Source of the DNA: Torpedo marmorata
Lineage: Eukaryota
Assembly: GCA_977017645.1 (NCBI GenBank)
Contig: OZ360232.1
Coordinates: 15,376,001 to 15,440,000 of the forward strand
Direction: 5' to 3'
DNA length: 64,000 nt
Shown here: positions 41,456 to 51,214 of the stretch, piece after piece
Layout: every line of letters starts with the position of its first letter
Numbering within the stretch: the first letter of the stretch is position 1
The notes under the pieces: generated by a model
The model's database searches: none
Told to the model about the DNA's origin: nothing
The model's input: only the letters and a program-made list of their open reading frames with translations
Translations under genes and position numbers: made by a program

Positions 41456-42126
41456 ATATGAGTTAAAATTAACTTGTCCTGACACTACTGGTTTTAGGGA
41501 CAGATAAAGCTCATCAAAATTCAGCCTATTTTGTTCAATGCCTATAAAGAAGAAGATAAAAAAACTGGATTTTGACTTCATCTTTAAAATAAAGACTAAA
41601 TCAAATGACCATGTGATAATATCAAGAGCCATTTTAAAATGGACTGTCCAACTTCTGAAATTATTCCTTGGCACCTCACCATTAACAACACGTTTTAGAA
41701 TATGAACGTGGGCTTCGATCATAAACTTGTAGGCCATTGAAAATAATGTTTGTCAGCAGACGCCCTCATACCATTACAGTTATAATTAAACATAAATTTT
41801 CTGCATTTTAGTGGAATAACACTGATTTGCCATGTTCTTCTTATTCCCTCAGGTGCTGAATCTGCCTCTTCTCCTTAGCAATCAATAATTTGAAACAATA
41901 GCATTATTAAAATTTAATGATTACATAAAGGAATTGAAACCATCCATCTAGCTACAGGATTATCAAAATTATTCTCAGAGTAACCTGGAACTGGTAAAAG
42001 TAACTTGTTTCTGGTTCTCTGGAATGTTGTGGTAAGCAAAATGCCAAATATTAATTTATTGAACAGATCAAACAAGTATGATTTGTTTGATACACACAAT
42101 ATGTATTGATACGCACAATACATAGT

Positions 42127-42341
42127 TGTGTTATTATGCGTGTAAATAAGAACTACACTTCCCAGCATGCAATGCACACAATTGCCAGATACCGGAAGTG
42201 ACATGTGAGGCCATTGTCATTTATTGTCGGTTGAAGACAGTTGGAAGTCGTTGGAGGCGGTGGAAGCAACACAAGGAAAATAAAGTCGGTTAACTGTTAA
42301 ACCTACGTAAAGTCGTTCTTCTTGAAAGAACAAGCTTAACA
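42127..42341 (+). repeat. 5' LTR (215 bp)
   Basis: tgtgttattatg...caagcttaaca; aligns end to end with 50732-50947; aataaa at 42279-42284. Confidence 0.93.
42152..42200 (+). promoter_or_regulatory. ZNF143/THAP11-type site (ACTACAcTTCCCAGCATGCAATGC) plus ETS site (ACCGGAAGTG) in the LTR
   Basis: Match to the known ACTACAnnTCCCAG SBS consensus and the CCGGAAGT ETS consensus; binding untested. Confidence 0.6.
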
Positions 42342-42355
42342 TGGTGTAAGAAGTG
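42342..42355 (+). promoter_or_regulatory. Primer-binding site, tRNA-Leu type (tggtgtaagaagtg)
   Basis: Immediately follows the LTR terminal CA; one mismatch to TGGTGTCAGAAGTG. Confidence 0.75.
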
Positions 42356-42390
42356 TTTGAGTGAGTAAGAGAAGACAATAGTTCGTAAGC

Positions 42391-43449
42391 ATAGATAAGT
42401 TAAGTCCTCCCACACTGATGCAGTTTACCAGCAATCTCGCCGATAATTGGAAATGCTTCAAACAGCGATTCAACATTTATTTAGAGCAGGTGTTCCCAAA
42501 CATTTTAGACCATCGACCCCTTTATGGAATCCTTGATCCCTCATAGACCACCAGGCATGTACAAATAAATAAATAAATAAATAAATAATAATGATGATTA
42601 AGTAGACGTGCAGTTTCCATATGCATTAGTGAGGGAAACTGCATACCATATGCATGGTGTCCGGGCCTCCCAGCAACAACCCAAACTTTGTTACAACACC
42701 CCAATCGCCAAGTAACAAACCTGTAAATTAAGCAAGCAAGTGATTACAATAACACTAAAAAAAAACCTTTGTTTCTGGCCGGGAAGATGCCAAATGGAGC
42801 TTGGTCCAAGTCTTCAGCATCGGCGACGGCGACTCCATTCTCAACATCAGGTGCGGTGCAGTTCGCATCGAAGAAGTCGACTCGGGCTCCCGGGCAGGAG
42901 AGGGAACCTCAGGCTCTACAATTCTTTCGACATCAAAAGTTCAATCGACCCCCTTTCAACCCACTGGCATTTTTCGACTCCTTGGATAGTCCCATCGACT
43001 CCCAGGGGTCGATATCGACCATTTTGGAGAACCCTGATTTAGAGGCTAGTGGAGCGGGAGAGACCGATGGAAAACGGAAAGCGTCTATATTTTTGCACGT
43101 GATGGGTGAAGATGCCTTGGACATCTATAACAGTTTCCAAATTGATGAGGCAGCTTTCACGTTGGACACTCTGATGACAAGATTTGAGGAGTATTCTGTC
43201 CCAAGTAAAAACGTCACGTATGAGAGATTCAAGTTTTTCTCCTGTGACCAGAAACAAGGTATGAGCTTCGACCAATACTTAGCCGAGCTTCACACACTGA
43301 GTAAGTCCTGCGAATGTGGAGATTTGAAAAATTCACTCATTAAAGACAGAATAGTTTGCGGAATCCCAAATAATGGACTTAGAGAAAGACTGTTGCGTGA
43401 AAAAGATTTCACACTGGAAAAGGCTGCGAATATTTGTAGGGCAGCAGAG
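42391..43449 (+). pseudogene. Gypsy (Mag-like) gag N-terminal part, split by MITE
   Basis: DKLSPPT..NLADNWKCFKQRFNIYLE|ASG...[11 protein letters not shown]...YERFKFF...QKQG..FDQY..EL...IKDRIVCGI...[23 protein letters not shown]; frame continuous once the MITE and one TSD copy are removed. Confidence 0.85.
42487..43036. mobile_element. hAT (Charlie-like) MITE
   Basis: Termini caggtgttcccaaa / tttggagaaccctg; perfect 8-bp TSD atttagag at 42479-42486 and 43037-43044. Confidence 0.88.
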
Positions 43450-43473
43450 ATGGCTCGCCATTTGCAAGAACAT

Positions 43474-43905
43474 AAGGAGAAGGCCCTGGAAATGCTGGAG
43501 CAGGTGAAAATATCCAAAGAAGTGGGTAGAGAGACTCTTATCAATGTTACCAGGACATTGTTACGCACAAAGGTCCACAACGAATTGGCAGCTGTCTTGG
43601 CAGAGGCTGTGGTCGATGCTGTTCTGACAGTGAAGAAACCAAACGAGTCAATGGATCTCTTCATTGTTGAAATTATGGAGATGAAACACAAAATAAAAAC
43701 AGAGTGACACACCTTGTGAAGGGAATAGTACTGGATCATGGTGCTCGGCACCCGGACATGAAGAAAAGGGTGGAAGATGCTTACATTCTCACCTGCTGCA
43801 TTTCACTGGAGTATGAAAAGACGGAAGTAAATTCTGGATTCTTCTATAAAAGTGCTGATGAAAAAAATAAAATAAAAAATTGTGCAAGCGGAGAGATAGT
43901 TAATT
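43474..43905 (+). pseudogene. CCT6A: Captured intron-less CCT6A (TCP-1 zeta) mRNA fragment, part 1
   Basis: KEKAL..LEQVK.SKE..RETL...RTKVH.ELA.VL.EAVVD...MEMKHK / [43 protein letters not shown]; frameshifts in A-runs. Confidence 0.9.
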
Positions 43906-44217
43906 TTTTTTTTTTTTTAATAATTTTATTTAATTTTTTAAAATCACAAAATACATATATCAAAAAAATAGTGTATTATTGAAAATACATGTGATATATT
44001 ACCACCCCCCCTTCCCACCCTCCCCTCCCCAACCCTCCCACGCTATCTAATAAAAAAAAAGAAAAAAATAGAATATAAAAATGTTAATTAAAAGAAAAGA
44101 AAAAGATTGAATAATAAAGTTAAGAAAGTTAGTGTTAGTATGAGGAGAAAACTATTTCAAGCTAACTCTACTTGTATATTGGAGGTTACTTTGTCAGCGG
44201 TACTAACTTCTAGAGAA

Positions 44218-49795: not shown

Positions 49796-49834
49796 GAAGA
49801 CAGAGTTAATAAAATTATAGCACTGAAAAAGAAA
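49796..49834 (+). pseudogene. CCT6A: CCT6A fragment part 2 (continuation after the L1)
   Basis: (VQAER*LI)[13 protein letters not shown] vs CCT6A VKAERKFIEDRVKKIIELKRK. Confidence 0.8.
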
Positions 49835-49859
49835 TTGGCAAAATGGAAATAAGAGAGAG

Positions 49860-50070
49860 GAACTGCTTATGGGCCCGACAGAGAGAGAAAATGAATGAAG
49901 AACACAATAAGCGACTGTCAGACACAGTGGACAGATTGTTGACAGAGTCTAATGAGCGACTTCAGCTGCATCTAAAAGAAAGAATTGCTACATTAGAGGA
50001 TAAGAATATATCGATACAAGAATCTTAACTCTTAAGAAAACAACTTGAAGAGTCTCTTCATGATAAGGAA
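49860..50070 (+). pseudogene. PPFIA2: Captured liprin-alpha (PPFIA2-like) coiled-coil mRNA fragment
   Basis: [37 protein letters not shown]...[30 protein letters not shown] and LEESLHDKE favour PPFIA2 among the paralogs. Confidence 0.85.
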
Positions 50071-50656
50071 TTGGAAAATGCAAACCATCTTCTTTCAACT
50101 ATAAAGCTTAAAGGAGCCGCCACACTATCAGAAGGGGAATTGGCAGCTACGTCGCCCACTGCAGTAGCTTCTGAAGTGCCACCGTGAAGAATATGAACGT
50201 GTGCAAAAATCTGTGGCAAATCTCTCAGCAAATTAGAAGATGCCATGAAGGAAATACGCTGTTTACAAAAATGCACTGATGAGGCGAAAAAGCATGATTC
50301 ATTATTCAACAGGAGAATCAGAGATAAAAAAGGCAAGTGTCAGATCTTTCACAGTAGAATAGGGTGCTTTTGATGGAACTAGAAGATATGCGAGGAAATC
50401 ATATTTTACGTAAAGATGAAGTTAGTTCTGCTGACATAAGAAGTTCCTTTGAAGTGATTTCTCAGCATCCGGTGACCTATCGTAATGTTGAGGAACTGCA
50501 ACAGCAAAATCAACAGCTACTGGTGACTGTTCGTGAACTTGCTGATAAACAGGAACCTCTTCACGGATTTCTGAACTTCAGCTGAATCTCGCGGATGCCC
50601 TGAATGAACTTGAACGACTTCGTGAAGCCAGAAGTCATCAGATGCAACTGGTGGAA
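50065..50656 (+). pseudogene. TPR: Captured TPR (nuclear basket protein) coiled-coil mRNA fragment with internal deletions
   Basis: KELENANHLLS...LSEGELAATSPTA / REEYERVQKSVANLS / [12 protein letters not shown]...[31 protein letters not shown] / SSRISELQL...HQMQLVE. Confidence 0.88.
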
Positions 50657-50718
50657 AGAGACTGTCCACGGAATGTAGATACTTTTGTTGTAGACATAGT
50701 ATTGTGTTTGTGTTTTTT

Positions 50719-50731
50719 AAAAGGGGAAAGA
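50719..50731 (+). promoter_or_regulatory. Polypurine tract (aaaaggggaaaga)
   Basis: Directly abuts the 3' LTR TG. Confidence 0.85.
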
Positions 50732-50947
50732 TGTGTTATTATGTGTGTAAATAAGAACTACATTTCCCAGCATGCAATGCGTGCGGTTGGGCTGAAACCA
50801 GAAGTGACATATGAGGGCATTTTCAGTTATTGTTGGTTGAAGACAGTTGGAAGTCGTTGGAGGCGGTGGAAGCAATACAAGGAAAATAAAGTCGGTTAAC
50901 TGTTAAACCTACGTAAAGTGTTTCTTCTTGACAGAACAAGCACAACA
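50732..50947 (+). repeat. 3' LTR (216 bp)
   Basis: tgtgttattatg...caagcacaaca followed by TSD atagt. Confidence 0.93.
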
Positions 50948-51214
50948 ATAGTGACCTCCATTATTGTATTGTGGATTACAAGAACAGGTTCTAATCATCA
51001 TTCTCTACCAATGCTATCATTTCATTTCATCTACTCTTAAATTCTCTCACCATATAAACTTTCCAATGGCTTATCCTTCAGTTTCACCACCATTGGTCAC
51101 TTTATTTCCATTGTTATGACCAAGGGCAAGGAATTCTCTGTCTGTTTTTACACCGCCTTCCTTTTCTTTCCTTTCCCATCTCCACTTTCTCTACATTAAC
51201 TCATAGAAGAGATT

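Follow-up and report, generated by a model that had tools for sequence, protein, structure and literature searches.

How does a small retrotransposon without enzymes of its own come to hold pieces of several host genes, and did such an element ever spread? The question is raised by a locus of Torpedo marmorata that lies within a stretch of 64,000 nucleotides (the window; GenBank assembly GCA_977017645.1, contig OZ360232.1, positions 15,376,001 to 15,440,000), where the original prediction, made from the sequence alone, described a Gypsy element with long terminal repeats (LTRs) whose pol gene had been replaced by fragments of CCT6A, PPFIA2 and TPR mRNAs. The analysis presented here points, with a probability of about 0.88, to a dead non-autonomous Ty3/Gypsy element in which spliced pieces of five host mRNAs would have replaced pol through template switching, and which would be a mosaic of three subfamilies (A, G and B, below) that spread with the enzymes of sibling elements.

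Structure of the element

When the later insertions of a miniature inverted-repeat transposable element (MITE) and an L1 are subtracted (8,821-558-5,890), 2,373 bp remain, in agreement with the predicted ~2.4 kb, and every predicted part could be located: target site duplications (TSDs), LTRs, primer binding site (PBS), gag, the three cargo fragments, tail and polypurine tract (PPT) (Table 1). This is a Gypsy derivative bounded by ATAGT, with a tRNA-Leu primer site and gag but no pol. Its TG...CA LTRs, TSD in the 4-6 bp range, PBS and PPT are those of Ty3/Gypsy elements, and the loss of reverse transcriptase (RT) and integrase, with the cis signals retained and copies bearing their own TSDs, is that of non-autonomous LTR elements. 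Pfam recognized Retrotrans_gag (E 0.001, below the curated cut-off), Cpn60_TCP1, LIP-1 and TPR in the window, and the match to the closest Gypsy polyprotein (1,373 amino acids) is restricted to gag, which has lost its zinc knuckles by deletion, as well as its start codon. The anticodon of the primer tRNA was read off the sequence, ARAGORN having made no Leu call for those genes. The predicted absence of protease, RT and integrase is true of this copy, but a protease occurs in its family; similarly, CCT6A, liprin and TPR were correctly named, but the cargo comes from five genes, an intermediate filament (IF) remnant and a KANK1 piece having been overlooked.

Table 1. Parts of the element and its later insertions (positions in the window)
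Feature	Position	Strand	Basis or remark
Left TSD ATAGT	42122-42126	.	sequence
5' LTR, A-type	42127-42341	+	alignment and LTR tree
PBS	42342-42355	+	complementary to tRNA 3' end, CAA anticodon (Leu), intron-bearing
Gypsy gag, 5' part only, split by MITE	42391-43450	+	Pfam and polyprotein match
Type III IF mRNA remnant	43447-43479	+	parent comparison
CCT6A mRNA piece, 5' part, from amino acid 127	43477-43905	+	Pfam and parent comparison
CCT6A piece, 3' part, containing second L1 TSD	49781-49834	+	parent comparison
KANK1 piece, 37 nt	49824-49860	+	subfamily G and parent exon end at G000:C2:246.29 Mb
Liprin-alpha mRNA piece	49858-50068	+	Pfam and parent comparison
TPR mRNA piece (amino acids 351-607 of whale-shark TPR)	50065-50656	+	parent comparison
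Element's own 3' tail	50651-50718	+	comes after the pol stop in pol-bearing copies
PPT	50719-50731	+	sequence
3' LTR	50732-50947	+	alignment and LTR tree
Right TSD ATAGT	50948-50952	.	sequence
Later MITE, 550 bp	42487-43036	.	inside gag; 8-bp TSD ATTTAGAG, imperfect terminal repeats
Later full-length L1	43906-49780	-	open ORF1 (460 amino acids) and ORF2 (1,270 amino acids, stop to stop), 15-bp TSD

The two LTRs show 89.8% identity over 215 columns (Kimura two-parameter distance 0.11) and are sisters (support 95/91) within the A-LTR clade (96/94), sharing two deletions. Together with the perfect TSD, this fits a single event of reverse transcription and integration after the mixing of the parts. 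The idea of an LTR hybrid between a B-type U3 and an A-type U5 region found no support, the diagnostic middle being A-type.

Subfamilies and the mosaic nature of the window copy

Subfamilies were typed first from forty 10-kb loci around the best matches (L and C numbers below are working labels of loci and contigs). Type A (about 3.2 kb) consists of gag with zinc knuckles, GOLGA4, IF, amino acids 127-482 of CCT6A and two unnamed pieces, type B (about 3.0 kb) of gag, protease, liprin and TPR, and type G of gag, protease, liprin, KANK1 and TPR. The IF|CCT6A junction of A was found at 65 sites (3 mismatches allowed) and the liprin|TPR junction of B at 246 (2 mismatches allowed), with 0 matches for the reversed-pattern control in both cases; these exact patterns replaced the 1,279-2,070 candidates of a first look, which were rejected as copy numbers. 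The 37-nt KANK1 filler occurs at 19 places: besides the window and the KANK1 parent there are 17, and the 11 of these 17 that were read are all of type G. The gag|IF junction of the window, a deletion at a shared GAGA, has one occurrence, which, beside component junctions present in many copies, indicates that the exact window arrangement did not spread and that its subfamilies did. By its junctions, the window copy thus appears as a one-off mosaic that passes from A to G (or to KANK1 mRNA) and then to B. The suggestion that the chimera had transposed is borne out for the cargo, found in many copies with different TSDs, but not for this three-part arrangement.

Other combinations extend the series. 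Type C (about 32 loci) joins an unnamed eight-exon coiled-coil gene to CCT6A from amino acid 41. Types D and E (L213 and L212) hold TPR from amino acid 606/607 and start at the GTGGAA word where B exits TPR; L212 is 1.9 kb long and without gag. Type F (L252:1415-2545, G000:C1:13.69 Mb) contains back-spliced exons of a TMCC-family gene (parent at G000:C45:74.77-74.79 Mb) that make up almost one lap of a three-exon circle, followed by 99 nt of a Glu-rich exon (C11:164.04 Mb), with further partial copies in L314 and L315, the former with the same back-splice junction. Type H (L368-L370; 13 pattern matches, 3 read) fuses gag to a longer GOLGA4 piece (amino acids 75-218, in L369 also 308-394) and looks like a precursor of A. 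Summed over types, with small overlaps, there are about 375 cargo-bearing loci and at least seven cargo types, so that one capture family with different cargoes, as envisaged originally, is what is found. Three further recombinants, L108, L092 and L254, arose independently, and in L254 protease and liprin are followed by an integrase end, as in a recombinant of B with a pol-bearing copy. In L189 and L252 a 30-bp unit within gag is tandemly expanded, to about 30 copies in L189. A 100% match between L095 and L259 was dismissed as a sign of recent jumping, the pair being a segmental duplicate (97.6% with flanks).

Cargo and parent genes

Comparison with the parent genes of the same genome confirmed the predicted intron loss in CCT6A, TPR and liprin. 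The window piece of CCT6A corresponds to four exons of the parent (C49), without its three introns (about 10, 38 and 4.5 kb), and shares with most A copies a frameshift near amino acid 205. The TPR piece covers six exons of its parent (C22) at 90-99% identity, with five introns absent; it holds internal deletions of 152 and about 19 nt, so the cargo is not continuous as had been claimed, although it is indeed sense, internal coding sequence without poly(A) or TSDs of its own. The liprin-alpha parent (G000:C48:26.87 Mb) is represented in the window by two full exons and the end of another, and the piece stops exactly at a donor site; at least one intron is absent here and four in subfamily B, where five exons are covered. 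One intron is absent between the two IF exons of the cargo (parent on C5), and seven are absent in the type C cargo. The absent introns of CCT6A, TPR, liprin, IF and type C are flanked by GT/AG in each parent. For KANK1 (C2) two exons were seen, and a PDB search gave 243 bits to KANK1 vs 171 to KANK2. All cargo pieces come from the interior of their mRNAs in sense orientation, carry neither poly(A) nor a TSD of their own, and have parents that run on beyond the breakpoints.

The CCT6A parent was located through a splice-donor pattern, a search with exon 1 having returned only an intronless paralogue. L214 (G000:C30:205.375 Mb) is an intronless open CCT6-like gene of 530 codons, 58% identical to Narcine CCT6A and outside the LTR family, probably an old retrogene. 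The best protein matches are those of electric rays, namely Tetronarce for IF (99-100% to the first exon of the parent) and Narcine for CCT6A. GOLGA4 was named through a skate protein (83%), and a 7,562-nt contig extends it further upstream; an alternative exon at its 3' end was dropped, as skate GOLGA4 has an internal in-frame deletion there instead. The liprin paralogue, for which a PDB search returned 0 hits, may be PPFIA2. Pfam and protein atlas searches with the C cargo and the two 3' pieces of A gave only generic coiled-coil matches below recognition level; CCDC150 and AKAP12 are our presumed labels for such cargo.

The differences from the parents that cargo copies share are few (4 in 585 nt for TPR, 3 in 528 for liprin and 12 in 273 for IF), which suggests that the spread came soon after capture. 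At four IF positions (L197-L198, G000:C5:99.83 Mb) the cargo shows M, A, Q and A, as in Narcine or sharks, and the parent V, T, H and T, which may reflect either fast change of the parent after capture or an older allele as the cargo source. Base composition showed no clear difference between cargo and gag/pol.

Switch points and a probable circular template

At all 11 junctions for which both templates could be measured, these share 3-9 nt, and five share 8-9, the chance of 8 or more shared nucleotides at random breakpoints being 0.0003. Microsimilarity above chance, intron-free partial mRNA in place of the internal open reading frame, and the retention of both LTRs are the marks of LTR-mediated retrocopies. 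In type F (L252) the donor of the last exon is joined to the acceptor of the first, an exact back-splice as in pseudogenes derived from circular RNAs (circRNAs), and the points of entry into and exit from the circle, at shared words of 8 and 9 nt, lie within one exon at a distance of 12 nt. Circular RNAs have no poly(A), and retroviral-type particles contain two RNAs. With three templates in the window copy, at least two rounds would be needed. Intron loss, sense cargo and the brief stretches of shared sequence at the junctions together uphold the view of an mRNA-capturing Gypsy derivative; such stretches have been ascribed to template switching in the particle in an earlier study (Tan et al. 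2016, PMC5131818).

The proposed pathway would start with a reverse transcriptase that switches, at 3-9 shared letters, onto co-packaged host RNAs. A gag-GOLGA4 form (H) would lead to A through the gain of IF, CCT6A and the two unnamed pieces, and a protease-liprin-TPR form (B) would lead to G through the gain of KANK1. Templates of A, G and B would then recombine over at least two rounds, their product would integrate once, and the MITE and L1 would arrive afterwards. Pol-bearing siblings would supply the enzymes for the spread of the cargo subfamilies, among which lineages with the gag frame open through the cargo would be favoured, most likely because their RNA was kept translated and stable, host use of the fusion protein not being the driver.

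Mobilization and relative age

Among the loci collected, a motif script could delimit 29 full-length cargo copies, whose left 5-mers are all different; 23 have perfect 5-bp TSDs, 2 have one mismatch and 4 are worse. The expected autonomous partner is represented by pol-bearing copies with the same LTR, gag and tail, found by an RT search, which match B (83-94%) over two stretches, one running from the LTR up to the precise point where liprin enters and the other at the tail. Some of them, L183 and L184 among them, cover protease, RT, RNase H and integrase in the Ty3/Gypsy order, and the 4.3 kb between the LTR ends leave no room for env. Pattern counts are 630 for the protease|RT junction (reversed-pattern control, 10) and 1,041 for the LTR|PBS junction. 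A sample of 51 copies with a PBS on contigs C1 and C2, drawn in the order of a list biased to perfect PBS matches (minus four already in the set and one neighbour), comprises 23 with cargo, 16 with pol and 12 too broken to class. The median LTR-pair distances overlap (A 0.075, n=7; B 0.089, n=11; C 0.095, n=3; pol 0.086, n=7), suggesting that all were active in one long, now old episode, at an uncalibrated rate. The cargo subfamilies were likely mobilized in trans by the enzymes of their pol-bearing siblings.

Junctions of A or B are also spanned by contigs of sequencing runs that fall under three coded organism labels, and these contigs may originate from RNA or DNA; RNA is the probable source for some of the runs, in which contigs of the spliced parents occur. 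In run X12, contig depth on L124:7633-8488 reaches 10,000-56,000 over the TPR part vs hundreds elsewhere, possibly the result of targeted capture.

Reading frame and selection

At 11 of the 13 subfamily-type junctions the cargo continues the gag frame (P 0.0002-0.027, for a chance per junction of 0.33-0.55), and the junction phase is common to most copies; codon structure alone puts 37-55% of shared words in frame. Out of frame are the exit of F and, judged by an inferred frame, the point where CCT6A meets the first of the unnamed pieces. Net dN/dS (the ratio of amino-acid-changing to silent substitution rates) of gag in A against the other types is 0.31-0.34, indicating that the source lineage of A kept gag constrained. 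Rare cargo mutations show a dN/dS of 0.7-1.0 and many stops, while shared changes number 10 amino-acid vs 2 silent in IF and 4 in TPR, all scored synonymous; the TPR values are rough, as one TPR exon was mis-framed (likewise in the codon-structure estimate). The cargo copies decay neutrally, and we read the frame bias as selection on the RNA or Gag of the element, not on a host function.

Later insertions and flanking repeats

The MITE is presumably hAT-like. The L1, which accounts for 5,890 bp within the CCT6A piece, has both reading frames open and would therefore be a young insertion in a much older element. Outside the element, 40001-40958 and 51220-52200 are two copies, 78-99% alike and 11.2 kb apart, of another dispersed repeat that flank it.

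Alternative explanations

An origin at the DNA level, in which cDNA or RNA served to mend a broken genomic Gypsy copy by synthesis-dependent annealing and the mosaic arose from gene conversion among A, G and B after insertion, is quite unlikely. Short shared letters suit repair as well as template switching, the unmatched TSDs of 4 of the 29 copies reveal that genomic recombination occurs, and the window has an A-type 3' LTR beside B-type cargo. Yet every named cargo is sense, no parental intron letters appear at the exon joints checked, the window combines a perfect TSD with private deletions in both LTRs, and B-cargo copies with window-like LTRs exist. It is also unlikely that Gag-cargo fusions were selected for a function, be it a host benefit, coiled-coil scaffolding or dominant interference with the particles of the partner. 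The frame bias, the constrained gag of the A lineage (0.31-0.34), the synonymous scoring of all four shared TPR changes (with its mis-framed exon) and the coiled-coil nature of six of the nine named or characterized cargos would agree with it; on the other hand, rare cargo mutations look unconstrained (0.7-1.0, with many stops), IF has 10 amino-acid against 2 silent changes, shared frameshifts occur among A copies and among B copies, coiled-coil codons lift in-frame matches by chance, and shared changes are too few for a selection test. Template switching, with selection on the RNA or Gag of the element, is preferred.

Independent L1 processed pseudogenes landing in a resident LTR element might be suspected from the intact L1 inside it and the intron-free cargo, but this is scarcely credible: an mRNA 3' end, poly(A) and individual TSDs are all lacking, the pieces are internal coding sequence, parents continue past each breakpoint, pol is replaced rather than interrupted, and one and the same junction is found at 65 to 246 sites. 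The original prediction had named poly(A) tails and individual TSDs as what would disprove it, and neither was found on the cargo. Very improbable, too, is a chimera of repeats made by the assembly, as the unique gag|IF junction and the lack of read data for the locus might suggest, given that the TSDs are perfect at each of three nested levels, that the LTRs are sisters, that the context is chromosome-scale (98-Mb class) and that contigs of independent runs bridge the component junctions.

Several points weigh against the capture and spread proposed here. Packaging and mobilization in trans are deduced from sequence; the best sequencing run has 0.26 of the words of the window locus, no RNA run was listed as containing it, and neither an empty site nor locus-spanning reads were seen. 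The KANK1 piece may derive directly from mRNA instead of from G, and the comparison with genomic parents extends neither to GOLGA4 nor to two of the pieces in A. When the two out-of-frame junctions of the window are included, the frame is kept at 11 of 15 (P 0.002-0.12, the highest value under the most cautious null); moreover, the CCT6A frameshift is present in 19 of 23 A copies and the TPR deletion in 23 of 25 copies of B, which implies that an unbroken frame was not required to the end.

Significance and comparison with known systems

A broader proposal, possible but with the odds somewhat against it, is that Gypsy families of rays and sharks act as mass samplers of mRNAs and circRNAs, with swapping of modules, step-by-step gain of exons, filtering for an open gag frame, and production in the germ line and selection of Gag-host fusions at some stage. 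If so, cargo lineages may make up at least a third of a family, which would be a fossil record of the RNAs present in particles, including a circular RNA with its copying route visible at the junctions. In any case, where the mechanism was known from a few dozen animal loci scattered over species, one vertebrate genome now gives a countable series, with 13 or more subfamily-type junctions, available parents, precursor and derived stages and three-way recombinants, and makes three points testable: retrotransposition of circRNA by template switching, frame selection in helper-dependent elements, and the identity of the RNAs co-packaged in germ cells. On the practical side, hundreds of fragments 93-99% identical to TPR, liprin, CCT6A, KANK1 and GOLGA4 will confuse annotation and read mapping in this lineage.

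Acutely transforming retroviruses are defective, helper-dependent genomes with gag-onc fusions, such as gag-myb-ets of E26. The present elements likewise combine a defective genome, host exons in frame with gag and a probable dependence on a helper; however, they are germ-line Gypsy elements without env, nothing indicates a choice of oncogenes or a working, transforming fusion protein, the partner is a Gypsy rather than an env-bearing helper, and the copies decay. Fish Ty3/Gypsy polyproteins ('K02A2.6-like', P0121-P0133) share 56-65% identity in Gag-protease and the order protease-RT-RNase H-integrase, but keep pol, and no cargo is visible in their records.

The study of LTR-mediated retrocopies in animals reports 5 loci in zebrafish, 4 in chicken and 8 in mouse, with a median microsimilarity of 6 bp, a four-gene mouse locus and secondary rounds of retroposition (Tan et al. 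2016, PMC5131818). Partial mRNA in place of the internal reading frame, multi-gene chimeras and repeated rounds are common to both; there the loci are a handful per species with few secondary copies, whereas here a single Gypsy family has about 375 cargo loci, with precursors and recombinants. Maize Bs1, also a non-autonomous LTR element, carries pieces of three unlinked genes after gag in one to five copies and has been proposed as a functional chimeric gene (PMC5131818, PMC13317346), while the present case involves hundreds of neutrally decaying copies in a vertebrate. Mouse circRFWD2 pseudogenes (33-42 copies) hold a back-splice junction associated with LTR sequence of MMERVK10C, through a mechanism left open and called 'mysterious' (Dong et al. 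2016, PMC4897178); type F, a sister type and not the window copy, differs in its nearly full three-exon lap, in the words of 8 and 9 nt shared where the circle begins and ends, and in its Gypsy vehicle. The literature consulted, which did not extend to subscription journals, Repbase/Dfam or the supplements of Tan et al. 2016, held no description from cartilaginous fishes and no family of such scale, with serial intermediates or cargo swapping. The capture mechanism is known in vertebrates; what would be new is its scale and anatomy.

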